Shown one piece after another: positions 14,877 to 57,091 of a stretch of 64,000 nucleotides of DNA. Every line of letters starts with the position of its first letter. Position 1 is the stretch's first letter. This DNA comes from a virus. Lineage: Duplodnaviria; Heunggongvirae; Uroviricota; Caudoviricetes. The notes under the pieces are model-generated. The model was given only the letters and a program-made list of their open reading frames with translations. It did no database searches and had not been told where the DNA came from. Where the stretch lies: IMG/VR virus record IMGVR_UViG_2571042390_000001. The stretch is one strand, 5' to 3'. A program made the position numbers and the translations under genes.

Positions 14877-14928
14877 CCTGTGTGTCTACAAAACATCCCA
14901 ATGATCGGAAAATGCTCGGCCGATTATT

Positions 14929-14963
14929 TATGTTAGAAAATTAATTTGCTGTTTCTAAAACGG
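14929..14963. promoter_or_regulatory. Pair of divergent operator-like motifs upstream of the first icd/ant module
   Basis: atgttagaaaattaatttgctgtttctaaaacgg: one TGTTAGAAA and one TTTCTAAAA copy 11 bp apart. Confidence 0.5.
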
Positions 14964-15289
14964 AATGTATGATCTGCATCATCGACTGAAGTCATCCATT
15001 GCTGAAATTTTTAGTTGATCTTCCATGTTTTCAGGCTTATATTCATGCCGTCGTAGCAAATTCTGCGACCGGGTTTGACAGCCTGAATGTTAGTGCGGAC
15101 AACCGCAGATTTCCGATATTGCGGTATTTTTGTGTCCGTAAACCGCGTTACGCCCGAATTATGGTGGGGCGTGATGGGGAGGCTTCGGCCTGCTGGTTTC
15201 ACTAACGCCAGTCTGTCAACCCTGTCACGTCCTGCCACCTGTTTGACAGCGGGTGGCAGGTTGTTAAACCTGTTAGTGAGGCCGTAACT

Positions 15290-15514
15290 ATGGTTAATGC
15301 CAATCCTTGCTCACGTCCAGAATTCATCTGGCGTTTCCACTCCCTGCAAAAACGCTGCGATCACTTCGCAATTGCCGCAACCGAAAAAGAAGCCCGTTCT
15401 CTGATCCCTGATCAGCATGGTGTTCTTACTGGTCGTTTCTCTACTTCCCCACAACCAAACACTAATCCCTGGTATCGCAATATTACCAATCCCGGCATTG
15501 CGGAGGCTCACTGA
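15290..15514 (+). CDS. icd: Icd-like small protein (copy 1)
   Basis: 74 aa; shares FIWRF, AATE and EARS segments with the 71-aa ORF at 55564-55779; directly precedes an antirepressor-like gene. Confidence 0.5.
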   Translation: MVNANPCSRPEFIWRFHSLQKRCDHFAIAATEKEARSLIPDQHGVLTGRFSTSPQPNTNPWYRNITNPGIAEAH

Positions 15515-16221
15515 TGGGTATCTGCATTCTCGAAAAACTATCAATGACCAGCATTGAGATTGCGGAGCTGGTGGGAAGCCAACACTCTGACGTTAAACGT
15601 AGTATTGAGCGTATGGTTGCTCGAAGCATTATCCGAAAACCGCCAATGGCTGTTTTCGAAAAAATCAATAACTTAGGATTGCGTCGTGGCGTTGAGGCTT
15701 ACGTCTTCGAAGGCGAGCAAGGCAAACGAGACAGCATCATTGTCGTCGCGCAGCTCTCTCCCGAATTCACCGCCCGGCTGGTGGACCGCTGGCGCGAACT
15801 GGAAGAACAAGTACGCCAGCCGTTGACCGAAATAGAGATGATCGCTGCAATGGCTGCGAATGCAGTTCAGCAGCAAAAGCTGATTCATGCTGTTGAGTCA
15901 AAGGTTAGCCAGGTCGCTGAAACCGTCGAGCAAATAAAGAAAGGCAATATTCCGGAAGGCTACATTGGCTACCGCCAGTTGGCGGCGAAATGCGGCCTGA
16001 CTGAAGCCAAATGCCGAAACCTTGTCAACGCTTACCGGATTCCCACCGATACACATGAGTTTTTGACTCCAGAGGGGGTATTGTCGCGTCGTTCCATCGT
16101 GGCCTTATCTCCCTTCATGAATGCTTTTAACCGGATGATGTCGGAGGCTGAACACCGAGGAAAACGCTGGTATCACCCCAAAATGGGGCAATTCCAGGTG
16201 ATCGGTTGGGGAGGTGAGTGA
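15514..16221 (+). CDS. ant: Antirepressor-like protein (copy 1)
   Basis: 235 aa; N-terminus MTSIEIAELVGSQHSDVKRSIERMVA; C-terminal segment EGYIGYRQLAAKCGLTEAKCRNLVNAYRIPTDTHEFLTPEG nearly identical to 55779-56720. Confidence 0.7.
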   Translation: MGICILEKLSMTSIEIAELVGSQHSDVKRSIERMVARSIIRKPPMAVFEKINNLGLRRGVEAYVFEGEQGKRDSIIVVAQLSPEFTARLVDRWRELEEQVRQPLTEIEMIAAMAANAVQQQKLIHAVESKVSQVAETVEQIKKGNIPEGYIGYRQLAAKCGLTEAKCRNLVNAYRIPTDTHEFLTPEGVLSRRSIVALSPFMNAFNRMMSEAEHRGKRWYHPKMGQFQVIGWGGE

Positions 16222-16418
16222 TGGACATCATGCAGGCGGTAAAAAAAATCAGGGAAGGACAGGCTGAAGTGTGCCGCCGTAAAGCATGGAGTGTTGGTGT
16301 ATGGGCCTGGCCTGATAATTACTCTACTACCGGATGGTTTTGTATTAATGGACTCCAGATCCGGGAAGTTGATTTATCGACGGCTGATATAGTCGGTAAT
16401 GATTGGATCGTGACTTGA
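16221..16418 (+). CDS. Small DUF2829-like protein, split from the antirepressor by a TGATG junction
   Basis: About 65 aa; motifs CRRKAW and DIVGNDWIV match the C-terminal extension that is fused in frame in the second ant copy. Confidence 0.5.
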   Translation: MDIMQAVKKIREGQAEVCRRKAWSVGVWAWPDNYSTTGWFCINGLQIREVDLSTADIVGNDWIVT

Positions 16419-16426
16419 AGCGTGAT

Positions 16427-16452
16427 GCCCCGGCCTGGCCGGGGCTTTTTTC
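16427..16452. terminator. Bidirectional intrinsic terminator
   Basis: gccccgg-cctgg-ccggggc followed by TTTTTT. Confidence 0.7.
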
Positions 16453-16936
16453 ATGCCTCATTAGTTGAGGTTGCTGCGTCTCCGACTGGTAACAGGGCGG
16501 TATTGCGTGGTTCGCCAGCAGGCCAGCGATAGCCAGACACTCTTGATGTTGGGAATGCGCGAATATTAACCGCATCCCCCTGGTTCCCACCCAGGACAAG
16601 CAGATCGCCATTGGCGCGGCGTCCGACAACGAAGCCTACGTGCCCACCGCCTACGCGGGTAAATACAACGATACATCCGTATGCCGGTGTATCTAATTTC
16701 TCGCCCCAATCCAGATAGGATTTTGCCGACTCAAATCTTGTTGAGCGAATGCCTACACGTTCCAGCATTGCACCGACAAATGCTGCGCACCACGGCGTTT
16801 CATCGTCTTTAATTCCGCCGCGCTTGATGTCGCGCCAGAACTGAACGATTTCAGGGTTGTGTTTAGCGCCTTTTATTTCAGTCAAGCCAATGTGCTTACG
16901 GGCTTCAATTAGCCAGCGAGGTTCAATGTTTGCCAT
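16451..16936 (-). CDS. Putative papain-like (CHAP / NlpC-P60-like) peptidase
   Basis: 161 aa; candidate catalytic Cys in TPWCAAFVGAM and His in GGGHVGFVVG. Confidence 0.45.
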   Translation of the reverse strand: MANIEPRWLIEARKHIGLTEIKGAKHNPEIVQFWRDIKRGGIKDDETPWCAAFVGAMLERVGIRSTRFESAKSYLDWGEKLDTPAYGCIVVFTRVGGGHVGFVVGRRANGDLLVLGGNQGDAVNIRAFPTSRVSGYRWPAGEPRNTALLPVGDAATSTNEA

Positions 16937-17087
16937 ATTTTTCTCCCGGTCATGGGTTAATAAGTAGGCAAACTATGGGGAGTATGTGATTTTGACGGTA
17001 GTATCGTCCCCCTGAAAATAACATTCTCCATACCCTCTCAACCGTACCGCATAGCGGAATTTTTTACGGTTTAGAGGGGGAAATCCT

Positions 17088-28357: not shown

Positions 28358-28432
28358 GATGGTGTAGCTCAGCGGTAGAGCAGTTGGCTGTTAACCAACT
28401 GGTCGGTGGTTCGAATCCACCCACCATCGCCA
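28358..28432 (+). tRNA. tRNA-Asn (anticodon GTT)
   Basis: 75 nt with CCA; acceptor gatggtg/caccatc, T-arm ggtgg-ttcgaat-ccacc, anticodon loop ctGTTaa. Confidence 0.85.
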
Positions 28433-28437
28433 ATTTA

Positions 28438-28524
28438 GGGGAGTTAGTCCGTAGGGGTAGCGGGGTAGACTGTAAATCTACTGTCATTGCGACTCGGGTG
28501 GTTCGACTCCATCACTCCCCACCA
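28438..28524 (+). tRNA. tRNA-Tyr (anticodon GTA), type II with long variable arm
   Basis: 87 nt with CCA; acceptor ggggagt/actcccc, anticodon arm gtaga-ctGTAaa-tctac, variable arm gtcattgcgac, T-loop ttcgact. Confidence 0.7.
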
Positions 28525-28528
28525 AATT

Positions 28529-28604
28529 GCCGGTTTAGCTCAGTTGGTAGAGCAGTCGCTTTGTAAGCGAATGGTCAGCGGTTCGATCCCGTTAACCGGC
28601 ACCA
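28529..28604 (+). tRNA. tRNA-Thr (anticodon TGT)
   Basis: 76 nt with CCA; acceptor gccggtt/aaccggc, anticodon loop ttTGTaa, T-loop ttcgatc. Confidence 0.85.
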
Positions 28605-29058
28605 ACACAACAGGTAAGAGCATTTGTAGAGTTCGACTCTCTACCGTGGGCTTTTTCCCGCGATGCGAGCCATAAATGCTCTTACCGTTGTGATGAAGTG
28701 CAGCTCTTTGAAGCAACCAGAAGATAAGCATCTGGCTTCACAACATAAACCGCAGGAACGACCAATAAACGGTAGTCCGTATGGAGAACACCCCGTTGAG
28801 GAAGAGGTCTGGCCGGAACCGTAACCGGCACTACAACGTTGAGAACACTGGCGTAACGGGGTCATATCCCAATCTACGAATAAATGTTGCGTTGCAGCGT
28901 GACAACCAGTGTTCTCAACATTGTGGTGAATGCGCAGGCTGATGCGCGAAAGACATTGCAGCTATTGCGGAAAAGAGCTGTTCGGCGGGGCAATTAAACG
29001 CCCGTGAGAGTCTGAAATAACCGCAAGCCGGAGATCAGCACCGGTCGCCACAATAACG

Positions 29059-29145
29059 GGAGAGTAGGGAGCATGGTGCTCAAGCGGTCTTGAAAACCGT
29101 CCCATTGCGCAAGCGATGATGGTTCGATTCCATTACTCTCCGCCA
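29059..29145 (+). tRNA. tRNA-Ser (anticodon TGA), type II
   Basis: 87 nt with CCA; acceptor ggagagt/actctcc, anticodon arm gcggt-ctTGAaa-accgt, T-loop ttcgatt. Confidence 0.7.
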
Positions 29146-29436
29146 GTGCAACATTAAGGGTATTTGGCTAATTAAGCGAATGCCGGAAGCAGAACCGGAT
29201 CACCAAATGCGTACAGGCGTCATCGCCGCCCAGTCAGCCAAATGCTCTTACCATTGCGGTGAATGCGGCTAAGCGCACGCGGAACAGTTAAAACAGTAAA
29301 GGTGGTCTTTTTACTGGCGTAACGAGAATCCATAAGTGATCCGGCGTTAATTGTTAACTGGTTAACGTCACCGGGAGGCGCCCGGCACCGCAACCTAACA
29401 GCAATGGCGTTTTGTCTTAAAAGGTGGCTGCAAGTG

Positions 29437-29565
29437 ATGGATTTTTGGGCGTTTGCCGATAAAAACCCGGAGTGGACATTATTGTTTCTGCTGGTGGTTG
29501 CATACGGGGTAGAGCAAGCGGCAAAAGCCTTACGCGGTTCTGGCAAAAAGCGTAAGCGTAATTAA
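29437..29565 (+). CDS. Possible small membrane peptide (42 aa)
   Basis: RBS aaggtgg then ATG; MDFWAFADKNPEWTLLFLLVVAYGVEQAAKALRGSGKKRKRN; hydrophobic core with basic tail; sits between tRNA genes. Confidence 0.25.
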   Translation: MDFWAFADKNPEWTLLFLLVVAYGVEQAAKALRGSGKKRKRN

Positions 29566-29574
29566 CAGTAATCT

Positions 29575-29650
29575 GGCCCTTTAGCTCAGTGGTTAGAGCG
29601 GGCGACTCATAATCGCACGGTCACCGGTTCAAGTCCGGTAGGGGCCACCA
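29575..29650 (+). tRNA. tRNA with CAT anticodon (Met or lysidine-modified Ile)
   Basis: 76 nt with CCA; acceptor ggccctt/aggggcc, anticodon loop ctCATaa, T-arm accgg-ttcaagt-ccggt. Confidence 0.85.
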
Positions 29651-54767: not shown

Positions 54768-55389
54768 AGTTGAATTGAAAAACTCTCCGATGTACATTCA
54801 CTACCGATTGGCACACCGGTCAACTTTTTGAGACAAACTGTTTAGTTTTTCGTATTATTGCCTCCGCCATACCTATGGCGGTGCAATATAGGTGGCTGAA
54901 AAGCCCCCGTTGACTCACGGTGTTCCAGCCTTTATTGCGCCGCCACCAGACCGTGGAACAGTCGATGGCGGCTCCGAAAGCAAGGAGTCACAACACTATG
55001 AACAACTACAGTCTTTTCCCATCACTCGTCTTCCACCACTCACGCGATAATCTGCATTCTTTGCTCGCGCCGGGGGTGTCAAAATGACTGTTCGCTACCT
55101 CAACTTTCAAATCAAGAACATTACTGGCGGTTGCTATGACTGGTTTGTCACTCTCGGAAAAGAAGTGATCACCGGGAAGCTGGATGAAGTGAAAGCTAAA
55201 GCAATGGCCTACGCCTGCAAGCAAGTCAGGAAGAAATCCGCCAAAGCATAAAATACTGACTGTTGCGCCCTGGCATTATCGTGGGGTATATTTCTACGGC
55301 ACCTTAGAAAAACGGGTGCCGGGATTGGAACCCCGGATAATGTCAAAGGCGACACAGACGCCGAACGCGTCTTTTTTTGTGTCATGCCA

Positions 55390-55560
55390 TCGCACAGCCA
55401 TACTTAGCGTTTAGCTCAGAGATCAATGGTAGTGCTGGCTGGGCTGCCGAAAGGCAGGCCGGTTCCCTTTGACGCCGGTAGTTCCAACCCAGTCAGTGCT
55501 ACCGCCATTGAGATTGGAACCTCACGCGGTAGCTCCTTAACTTAGTCAAAGGAGGCTGCC
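55390..55560 (+). ncRNA. Candidate c4-type antisense regulatory RNA locus; boundaries not defined
   Basis: ORF-free, hairpin-rich leader between operator and icd-like gene, where P1 places c4; no sequence match verified. Confidence 0.2.
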
Positions 55561-55563
55561 AAT

Positions 55564-55779
55564 ATGGCTACTATCCCTACCCCAACTCATTCTGAATTTA
55601 TCTGGCGTTTCTATTCCTGCCAAAAACACCTGTATATCTGCGTCATGGCTGCTACCGAAGCAGAGGCGCGCTCATACCTTCCCGAAGAACCCTGCATTTT
55701 TGCTGCTCGCTTCACTCTTGATGCGATGGAGATCCTCAATTACTGGAATCTGCCGATGAACTGCGTGGAGGTGCACTGA
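55564..55779 (+). CDS. icd: Icd-like small protein (copy 2)
   Basis: 71 aa; EFIWRFYSCQKH ... AATEAEARSYLPEE; strong RBS aaggagg. Confidence 0.6.
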   Translation: MATIPTPTHSEFIWRFYSCQKHLYICVMAATEAEARSYLPEEPCIFAARFTLDAMEILNYWNLPMNCVEVH

Positions 55780-56720
55780 TGAATCTGTCCATCTCTCAAA
55801 AAGCGACAATGACCAGTATTGAGATCGCGGAACTGGTGGGAAGTCGTCACTCTGATGTTAAACGCAGCATCGAAAGACTTGTTGCTAAAGGAGTTATCCA
55901 ACATACGCCATTGGCTACAGTTGAGAATAATCAATCACTTAGCCCTAATAAATACACAAAAGCCTATTTCTTCGAAGGCGAACAAGGCAAGCGCGATAGT
56001 ATTGTCGTCGTCGCGCAGCTCTCTCCCGAATTTACCGCCCGGCTGGTGGACCGCTGGCGCGAACTGGAGAATGCCCGGGTACAGTTAAAATCAAAAGCCG
56101 AAATCCTGGCTGAAATGGCGCAAATGCATCTTGAGCATGAACGCCGGATCAACGCCGTAAATGCCCAGGTAGCCGAGGTATCGGCACAAGTGTCCAGGGT
56201 CGCTGAAACCGTTGAGCAAATCAAGAAAGGCAATATGCCGGAAGGCTACATTGGCTACCGCCAGCTGGCGGCGAAATGTGGCCTGACTGAAGCCAAATGC
56301 CGTAACCTTGTCAACGCTTACCGGATTCCCACCGATACACATGAGTTTTTGACCCCCGATGGCTTGCTTGCGCGACGCTCCATTGTGGCCCTTGCCCCCT
56401 TCCGGAAAGCCTTTAAGCAGGTGATGTCGGAGGCAGAACCACGCAATAAACGCTGGTATCATCCAAAGATGGGGATGTTTCAGGCAATCCACCATCCTGT
56501 GCCTGAAAGCCCAAAGGATAATCTGTCACTACATACCGCCAGAGAGAAGATCAGGACTGGATACGCAACAGTGTGTCGTCGTTCTTCCTGGCCTGAAGGT
56601 ATATGGGTGTGGCCCGAAGGTGGATCACGAAAGCACTGGCGCACCATCCGTGACGGGAAAATCCATGCTATTGATTTAGCTCCAGAGGATGTTATTGCTA
56701 TGGACTGGATTGTTAGTTAA
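55779..56720 (+). CDS. ant: Antirepressor-like protein fused to a C-terminal DUF2829-like domain (copy 2)
   Basis: 313 aa; N-terminus MTSIEIAELVGSRHSDVKRSIERLVA; C-terminal extension VCRRSSWPEGIWVWPEG ... DVIAMDWIVS. Confidence 0.75.
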   Translation: MNLSISQKATMTSIEIAELVGSRHSDVKRSIERLVAKGVIQHTPLATVENNQSLSPNKYTKAYFFEGEQGKRDSIVVVAQLSPEFTARLVDRWRELENARVQLKSKAEILAEMAQMHLEHERRINAVNAQVAEVSAQVSRVAETVEQIKKGNMPEGYIGYRQLAAKCGLTEAKCRNLVNAYRIPTDTHEFLTPDGLLARRSIVALAPFRKAFKQVMSEAEPRNKRWYHPKMGMFQAIHHPVPESPKDNLSLHTAREKIRTGYATVCRRSSWPEGIWVWPEGGSRKHWRTIRDGKIHAIDLAPEDVIAMDWIVS

Positions 56721-56727
56721 ATGCTGC

Positions 56728-56750
56728 ATCCCCGGCGACGCCGGGGATTT
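56728..56750 (+). terminator. Intrinsic terminator
   Basis: tccccgg-cgacg-ccgggga followed by TTT. Confidence 0.6.
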
Positions 56751-56779
56751 AACTGCCAAATAATCGGATTATCCGCACG

Positions 56780-57091
56780 ATGAAAAAAATAGATTTCACT
56801 TATTCTGCCGCCACACTTGAGCGGCGCTTCACCCTCATTAGAGAGTTGGAACTGTCAAAAGTCTGGTATCAAATCCTACTGGATGAAGAGTTTTCACTGA
56901 TGGTTATAGCAGAAAAATTGGCTATGCCTAATGACCGGCACAAGGTCATAGCCAGCCTCGATCTGGTGACAAACAGATACTGGGAAACAGAGGAACTACA
57001 TGAGGCGGGAGTAATTCGTGACCTGATGGAGAATTCCGTTCCCCGCCGCTATCGTGCAGGGAACGGCATCTCCGTGGTTAAAGGTGTTTAA
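56780..57091 (+). CDS. Hypothetical protein
   Basis: 103 aa. Confidence 0.45.
   Translation: MKKIDFTYSAATLERRFTLIRELELSKVWYQILLDEEFSLMVIAEKLAMPNDRHKVIASLDLVTNRYWETEELHEAGVIRDLMENSVPRRYRAGNGISVVKGV

Follow-up and report, generated by a model that had tools for sequence, protein, structure and literature searches.

Does one stop codon separate two states of the same phage protein, or does it mark the border between two proteins, the second of which can act alone? The question is raised by IMG/VR virus record IMGVR_UViG_2571042390_000001 (Caudoviricetes), of which we analyzed a stretch of 64,000 nucleotides (nt), here called the window. A first interpretation made from the letters alone (the sequence-only reading) had noted two similar immunity modules, each with an operator-like site, a long structured leader, a small Icd-like open reading frame (ORF), and an antirepressor-like gene, ant. 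In module 2, ant continues in frame into a DUF2829-like domain, while in module 1 the same domain is a separate ORF that overlaps the end of ant. The explanation that we favor overall, with fair confidence, is that the two modules are ancient paralogous operons of the immI type known from phage P1, in which a C4 antisense RNA would gate both the Ant protein and a small module resembling the anti-defense protein Tad2.

The closest phage to the window is Escherichia phage D6, the sole full-length match for both regions when they were compared with phage records by megablast (94.8% identity over 14900-16950, which holds module 1, and 91.2% over 54800-57003, which holds module 2), and by this similarity the window is a D6-like phage-plasmid. 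The order of genes in D6 is repL, orf19 (Icd-like), orf18 (Ant, annotated as "similar to HK97 Roi"), and orf17 (a hypothetical protein of 65 amino acids, or aa) for module 1, and ref, orf83 (Icd-like), and orf82 (Ant, 313 aa) for module 2. The same two modules, one split (orf18 plus orf17) and one fused (orf82), are found in D6, at 91 to 95% DNA identity, and in D6-like plasmid prophages such as pYU39_89. A second c4/icd region is already in print for pYU39_89, a D6-like plasmid prophage (PMC6799933); the presence of two immI regions in D6-like plasmid prophages was therefore known, and that part of our analysis adds little. In the D6 record, however, orf17 is called a hypothetical protein, and there is no mention of DUF2829 or Tad2 for it or for orf82. 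The fused gene of the window is 100% identical to a gene of the Escherichia coli plasmid p702_18_3.

The proposed pair of icd/ant modules was borne out for 15037-16450 and 55299-56750 by RNA, Icd, Ant, and small-domain matches. Both Icd-like ORFs passed the cutoff of the NCBIfam model NF033153, and both Ant proteins passed that of Pfam Phage_pRha (Table 1). The Icd-like ORFs are 43% identical to each other, and the Ant parts are 67% identical (E = 2e-116, protein comparison). At the DNA level the ant genes are 74.8% identical over 714 nt. These comparisons support paralogy of the two modules. We regard ant1 and ant2 as old paralogs from their sequences; the proportion of synonymous sites that differ (pS) is 0.45 to 0.70 in most windows of 30 codons. 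In codons 151-180 (15964-16053 versus 56250-56339) pS falls to 0.14, which suggests local gene conversion between the two modules. The fused ORF listed at 55779-56720 encodes 313 aa, and the reported difference in length between the antirepressors comes down to 235 aa in module 1 against about 237 aa plus an 11-aa linker in module 2. A TGATG stop/start overlap links icd to ant in both modules.

Both Ant proteins resemble the Rha/Roi regulators (PF09669; HK97 Roi; the PHROG family phrog_63, "anti-repressor Ant") in their N-terminal Rha domain and in a strong phrog_63 match (E = 1.2e-46 for Ant1, whose counterpart in D6 is orf18). The last 50 positions of the phrog_63 profile, at its C terminus, include the small domain, and roi of HK629 has DNA similarity to the ant region.

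Each module has an a1/b1 leader and a C4 RNA that score above the Rfam thresholds, in agreement with the long structured leader that had been described. In module 1, a complementarity search paired C4 loop b' (15199-15206) with b1 (15089-15095) and b2, and loop a' (15213-15219) with a1 (15075-15081) and a2. In module 2, the same search paired loop b' (55466-55473) with b1 (55342-55349) and b2, and loop a' (55481-55487) with a1 (55325-55331) and a2. The b2 target covers the icd ribosome site in both modules; that of module 1 lies just upstream of the icd start. The C4 core of module 1 (15160-15236) is identical to P1 c4 at 77 of 77 positions, and its a1, b1, a2, and b2 are identical to the annotated targets of P1, not to those of P7, so that by sequence the C4 specificity of module 1 is exactly that of phage P1. 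Given this identity, a resident P1 and this D6-like plasmid should cross-repress each other's immI operons, although the remainder of the operon differs. Between the two modules, the complementarity search found no pairing of the C4 loops of one with the targets of the other. Since the loop sequences also differ, the two switches should act orthogonally, like those of P1 and P7.

The arrangement is that of immI in P1 and P7: an a1/b1 leader and C4 come first, then the targets a2 and b2 at the ribosome site of an Icd-like ORF, and last the coupled downstream genes. It differs in that the "Ant" here belongs to the Rha family and is not homologous to P1 Ant1 or Ant2; at the DNA level, the homology to P1 stops within icd, at about 15401. 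It also differs from P1 in having two modules with orthogonal C4 specificity, and the extra DUF2829-like module of the D6-like operons was not found in the P1-like phages that were searched. One P1-like phage, RCS47, does have a second C4/icd/Ant module of the module 2 type (L067, 103405-105004), between pacB and c1; its C4/icd region precedes an antirepressor of 371 aa. Elsewhere in RCS47 (L064, 25583-25816), a canonical DUF2829/Tad2 homolog is truncated by IS26.

The operator-like site of the sequence-only reading could not be confirmed. Alignment to the annotated P1 region showed that a P51b-type promoter is kept upstream of module 1, but the P1 operator Oc4 is not conserved there. The P1 C1-operator consensus, ATTGCTCTAATAAATTT, has no match in the window at up to 3 mismatches, although this consensus is that of P1 and the D6 operator may differ. 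The sole motif common to both upstream regions was at chance level.

Two observations concern the module 2 leader region. The leader was recognized by the Rfam model of isrK, an Hfq-binding small RNA of Salmonella Gifsy-1, and the match also spans a terminator-like hairpin (55356-55372); isrK-type elements thus seem to serve a second C4 class as its leader of the a1b1 type. The NCBI annotation pipeline (PGAP) calls an "ash family protein" ORF (55426-55545) directly over the C4 RNA gene.

The small ORF of module 1 (65 aa) aligns without gaps to residues 249-313 of Ant2 (40% identity; E = 3e-18), which are its last 65 aa. The same domain is therefore fused in module 2 and split off in module 1, as had been proposed. 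On the basis of profile-profile and fold searches, it is very probably a shortened, divergent DUF2829 domain. We aligned the profile of the small-domain family with hhalign to a Tad2 alignment of 11 proteins (SPO1 Tad2, or gp34.65, and ten tblastn homologs), and the match covered 63 columns, both domains end to end (Prob, 90.3%; E = 1.5e-6), with a score of 35.1 against a maximum of 17.2 in sixty column-shuffled controls. The AlphaFold model of the 65-aa protein (predicted local distance difference test [pLDDT] score, 75) has an N-terminal helix and an antiparallel sheet of five strands; the b2-b3 and b4-b5 loops each contain a short helix. Its order of elements, a1-b1-b2-a2-b3-b4-a3-b5, is the published topology of Tad2 and is common to the DUF2829 anti-defense sponges SPO1 gp34.65, ModTad2, HgmTad2, and AcrIIA7 (PF11195). 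Foldseek ranked ModTad2 and SPO1 Tad2 first in the PDB (prob, 0.87 to 0.97; E about 0.1) and DUF2829 proteins first in BFVD (prob, 0.99 to 1.0), including 66-aa and multidomain ones. In the model of the fused protein, the C-terminal domain follows the linker with the same order of elements as in the 65-aa model, and these models indicate that the small module folds independently.

The family and Tad2 also have in common an N-terminal helix motif and a C-terminal (S/T)xxDxxAxDW motif, and other DUF2829 domains likewise stand at the C terminus of longer phage proteins. The equivalents of the SPO1 Tad2 ligand contacts W25, I63, and D79 are invariant in the family. The fused copy, and only that copy, retains D67 and H71, within DGKIHA (DNKIHA in SPO1). 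In contrast to Tad2 domains, which have about 75 to 90 aa, the small domain has 65, because the long b2-b3 loop is missing, and all finds of its family are in phage-plasmid operons under C4 control. An exhaustive HMMER search of 1.84 billion proteins gave 6 representatives at E <= 1e-3, which makes the family tiny.

Two distant members of this family, P0010 and P0011, are standalone genes on contigs of 88 to 110 kb, one of which is named as a plasmid of Raoultella ornithinolytica. Both genes have a c4-a1b1 leader and a C4 RNA immediately upstream, and in both the b2 target overlaps the gene's own ribosome site; no Rha or Ant gene was called in either locus. With C4 present, b2 over the ribosome site, and no Ant, the small domain would be a direct cargo of C4 in its own right. 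These two genes in other phage-plasmids, together with the separate Shine-Dalgarno site in module 1, uphold the earlier suggestion that the domain is modular and can act alone. We had also considered that the small domain serves only as an accessory to Ant, which the standalone C4-controlled copies contradict. Since the domain is standalone or split in three of the four lineages, the module 2 fusion is, by parsimony, probably the derived state.

Table 1. Features of the two modules in the window (positions count from the first letter of the 64,000-nt stretch).
Feature	Position	Strand	Basis
Module 1 promoter-like site	15015..15043	+	TTGATC-17-TATATT, scan; positional equivalent of P1 P1c4/P51b by alignment
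Module 1 leader, bears a1 and b1	15037..15089	+	Rfam RF03163 c4-a1b1, 55.2 bits (gathering cutoff, 46.7)
Module 1 C4 RNA	15157..15242	+	Rfam RF01695, 68.8 bits (gathering cutoff, 45)
Module 1 C4 targets	a2 15243-15249; b2 15272-15279	+	Perfect 7- and 8-nt complementarity to C4 loops
Icd-like ORF 1, 74 aa	15290..15514	+	NCBIfam NF033153, 38.4 bits (cutoff, 25); phrog_1426, E = 2.6e-38
ant1, Rha-family "Ant," 235 aa, without small domain	15514..16221	+	Pfam Phage_pRha, 30.6 bits (gathering cutoff, 29.9)
GGAGG Shine-Dalgarno site within the end of ant1, 6 nt before the ATG of the small ORF	16210..16214	+	Sequence
Standalone DUF2829/Tad2-like ORF, 65 aa	16221..16418	+	Homology, model, fold searches; D6 orf17
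Intrinsic terminator closing module 1	16427..16451	+	8 G-C pairs plus T run
Module 2 leader, bears a1 and b1	55299..55377	+	Rfam RF01394 (isrK), 61.3 bits (gathering cutoff, 50)
Module 2 C4 RNA	55422..55509	+	Rfam RF01695, 77.1 bits (gathering cutoff, 45)
Module 2 C4 targets	a2 55514-55520; b2 55545-55552	+	Perfect 7- to 8-nt complementarity to C4 loops; b2 overlaps the icd2 AAGGAGG ribosome site
Icd-like ORF 2, 71 aa	55564..55779	+	NCBIfam NF033153, 49.4 bits (cutoff, 25)
Ant part (aa 1-237) of the fused 313-aa protein	55779..56489	+	Pfam Phage_pRha, 32.7 bits (gathering cutoff, 29.9)
Pro-rich linker HHPVPESPKDN, aa 238-248	56490..56522	+	AlphaFold 2 pLDDT <50, predicted disordered
Fused DUF2829/Tad2-like domain, aa 249-313, plus stop	56523..56720	+	Homology, hhalign, AlphaFold 2 model

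The sequence data establish the layout, the homologies, the pairing of C4 with its targets, the relations of the frames, and the stability across populations, while expression, antirepressor activity, and ligand binding are inferred. We propose that the operons work as follows. The leader transcript would carry C4, whose two loops would pair with a2 and b2 over the icd ribosome-binding site. Because the pairing covers this site, C4 would shut off the whole UGAUG-coupled chain from icd through the Rha-family "Ant" to the small DUF2829/Tad2-like module. The simplest reading of the overlaps is that the cistrons are translationally coupled in a chain and all depend on the C4-controlled start of icd. 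With different loops and targets, the two C4 RNAs would control their operons independently. If P1 biology is a guide, C4 would be limiting when a naive cell is infected or upon induction; icd would then be translated and, by coupling, so would Ant and the small module. In module 1 the small module would be made as its own cistron, from its own Shine-Dalgarno site by termination-reinitiation coupling, and in module 2 it would be tied to Ant by a flexible Pro-rich linker. The small module would then be an autonomous factor, expressed early and made with the antirepressor only when C4 control is absent.

What such a factor would do is a question that we can answer only tentatively. It is a reasonable possibility, somewhat short of an even chance, that the small module acts, like its Tad2 relatives, as a sponge that takes up a nucleotide immune signal. 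Every characterized DUF2829 protein is a signal sponge or an anti-defense protein, with varied ligands, and for this reason we favor a sponge; early expression that is silenced in the lysogen would suit this role. The sponge would be made only upon induction or when the phage-plasmid enters a naive cell; in the lysogen it would stay silent, leaving the host's own defenses in place. Put more broadly, and with a good deal of doubt, a divergent branch of Tad2/DUF2829 may have been wired into a P1-type antisense-RNA immunity circuit, either as a C4-gated sponge or as a repurposed small antirepressor or partner protein.

Several points weigh against the explanation that we favor. Of the SPO1 Tad2 ligand contacts, N26 and W73 are not conserved in the family, GWNGKG is replaced by CRRxxWxxGxW, and the missing b2-b3 loop is the one used for dimerization in Tad2; with these losses, a sponge function is uncertain. 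Tad2 homologs are known to differ in ligand. The 65-aa ORF scores 15.1 to 15.2 bits (E = 0.03) on the Pfam Tad2-like model, below the cutoff of 25, the E values of the fold searches are weak (0.01 to 0.2), and confidence in the model is moderate. The split small ORF has a ratio of nonsynonymous to synonymous differences (pN/pS) of about 0.68, from few substitutions (pS, 0.064). We infer that "Ant" is an antirepressor acting on a C1-type repressor from its position after icd and from family and PHROG annotation. Finally, the tiny small-domain family is always found in C4 modules, which could instead point to a role in the choice between lysis and lysogeny.

This last point leads to the alternative that survives best, namely that the DUF2829 fold has been reused within the lysis-lysogeny machinery, with the small domain serving in Ant oligomerization or as a partner subunit, or as a small antirepressor that binds a C1-type repressor. 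We consider it rather unlikely, but several observations favor it. All four lineages of the family lie in operons under C4 control (immI-type), which classically carry an antirepressor, and in two loci (L003 and L004) the small domain is the sole cistron clearly under C4 control. The loss of canonical ligand residues and of the dimerization loop fits such a change of use. The domain is also conserved in more than 100 D6-like plasmids, unlike typical anti-defense cargo, which is variable, and small-protein antirepressors are a known kind. Standing against this are the uniform anti-defense record of the characterized DUF2829 proteins, the invariant W25, I63, and D79 equivalents, and the DxKIHA motif with D67 and H71 in the fused copy, while the standalone forms with no Ant partner make a pure Ant-accessory role unlikely.

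It is improbable that a small alpha/beta domain has come to resemble DUF2829/Tad2 by chance and that the family is unrelated and uncharacterized. The small ORF stays below the Pfam gathering score, the whole fused protein has no match to the Pfam Tad2-like model, and no PDB sequence match reached a significant E value: direct searches of the PDB with the 65-aa ORF and the fused protein gave nothing useful, and shallow profiles gave only a marginal match to SPO1 Tad2. Other searches added little. Word-indexed homolog searches found near-identical D6-like sequences only, a scan of genome contigs gave only short spurious matches in unrelated metagenome-assembled genomes, D6 was the sole match to P0010 by tblastn among 50,697 phages, and a scan of viral contigs with SPO1 Tad2 found only SPO1 itself. 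Against a chance similarity, four of the seven family members match the Pfam Tad2-like model weakly over its full length (E = 0.012 to 0.03), the distant member P0010 acts as an intermediate at 23.9 bits (E = 6e-5), and the family and Tad2 align over their full length with N- and C-terminal motifs in common. The label "DUF2829-like" from the sequence-only reading thus stands on profile-profile and fold evidence, but not by the Pfam threshold.

To follow the two arrangements across populations, we examined 43 IMG/VR loci carrying the small domain. Module 1-type loci were split in 22 of 22 cases, with the same layout in D6. The small ORF was intact in 21 of these and carried a one-base deletion within an A-run in the other (L032). 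Among the 19 module 2-type loci, 12 had an intact fused ORF of 308 or 313 aa, as D6 does; in 4 to 5, ant2 was frameshifted by a homopolymer change from C5 to C6 (the indel in L048 differs), and two were cut by contig ends. The small domain was found by tblastn in 121 PLSDB plasmids (103 from Escherichia, 16 from Salmonella, and 2 from Shigella), about 100 of which carry both copies, and full-length matches to the split small ORF at 90% identity or more occur in about 108 plasmids. The pN/pS of the fused C-terminal domain is 0.13 (pS, 0.27), compared with 0.28 for ant1, and by this measure the C-terminal domain of module 2 is under strong purifying selection.

It is therefore hard to credit that one copy is decaying, with the fused gene a pseudogene or the split 65-aa ORF a nonfunctional leftover. 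PGAP does flag the identical, intact fused gene in NZ_CP074704.1 (44108-45171, together with the "ash" ORF) as a pseudogene "missing C-terminus," but it annotates only the 237-aa Ant part and leaves the DUF2829-like tail unannotated. Because the flag spans only this part, it reflects a mismatch with a shorter reference protein rather than a lesion, and from the sequence the label is an annotation artifact, not a sign of decay. The ant2 frameshifts, the higher pN/pS of the small ORF in module 1, and a deletion variant (L053) also speak for decay. They are outweighed by the 313-aa ORF, which is intact in the window, in D6, and in the 12 IMG/VR loci, by the selection on its C-terminal domain, and by the small ORF of module 1, which has kept its Shine-Dalgarno site and the residues of its fold core. 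Within the window, neither module has the look of a pseudogene.

Some variants in this sample deserve mention in their own right. In four module 2-type loci from independent contigs (L047 and L049-L051), the C5-to-C6 insertion lies at about position 2390 of the locus, equivalent to the C-run near 56395 of the window, and what remains after the frameshift is a 120-aa ORF with the DUF2829-like domain still at its end; the insertion is a sequencing error or else a recurrent change, of an inactivating or phase type. The deletion in L053 (2405-2572), a locus additional to the 22, removes ant1 and most of the small ORF and joins an out-of-frame ORF of the icd region to the last 23 aa of the small protein. 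We dropped pSa1423-160k (L011) as an intermediate variant, since its sequence is ridden with frameshifts. We likewise rejected the 81-aa "transcriptional regulator" of IncY plasmids (L010) as a natural split; it appears to be a remnant of the fused gene, with insertion sequence elements on its flanks and its start immediately after a gene for a tyrosine recombinase/integrase.

The junction in module 1 answers the question with which we began. The TGATG overlap described earlier is real: the ant1 stop codon (TGA, 16219-16221) and the start codon of the small ORF (ATG, 16221-16223) form a UGAUG overlap, and the junction GGAGG(T/C)GAGTGATGGAC is kept in 21 of the 22 IMG/VR module 1 loci. The two ORFs lie in different frames. 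Read-through of the ant1 frame past TGA meets a TAA after 6 codons, and the frame of the small ORF is closed upstream by a TGA at 16215-16217, so no read-through or frameshift can join them. The idea that one stop codon separates two states of the same protein is thus set aside, with the frames different and both closed at the junction. It is exceedingly unlikely that module 1 also makes a fused Ant-DUF2829 product through a single stop codon or a programmed frameshift: the ORFs abut at TGATG just downstream of GGAGG and a fused form exists in the paralog, but TGA 16215-16217 leaves no window and no slippery site for a shift, and the conserved junction, with GGAGG 6 nt from the ATG, has textbook reinitiation geometry. 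As far as the frames tell, the split and fused states reflect a gene fusion or fission that is fixed in diverged paralogs, and they are not exchanged by read-through or frameshifting.

Other features of the window lie outside this argument. A gene for a CHAP/TIGR02594-type peptidoglycan hydrolase (16451-16936, minus strand) converges on module 1, and the terminator hairpin at 16427-16445 is common to both. Four tRNA genes are clustered on the plus strand at 28358-29647. Direct and inverted repeats of about 220 to 240 bp, with 86 to 94% identity, lie at 234-916 and 2066-2285 and may be the ends of an invertible or duplicated segment.

What is new here is the identification of an unannotated 65-aa ORF and an extra Ant2 tail as members of a tiny, divergent DUF2829/Tad2-like family, which occurs only as cargo of C4 antisense-RNA switches and is fused, split, or standalone depending on the lineage. 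Surveys of anti-defense genes that rely on the NCBI annotation, with its pseudogene label and unannotated tail, or on Pfam thresholds will miss this domain. The D6-like plasmids that carry it are frequent in E. coli, Salmonella, and Shigella, with 121 records in PLSDB. We found no literature that links DUF2829 or Tad2 to antirepressors, immI, or phage-plasmids. If the small module is a sponge, a temperate phage-plasmid would time an anti-defense factor together with its antirepressor; if it is a regulator, it would be a new use of the Tad2 fold. Either reading, if true, would tie anti-defense protein folds to the control of prophage immunity, a link that we have not found described.

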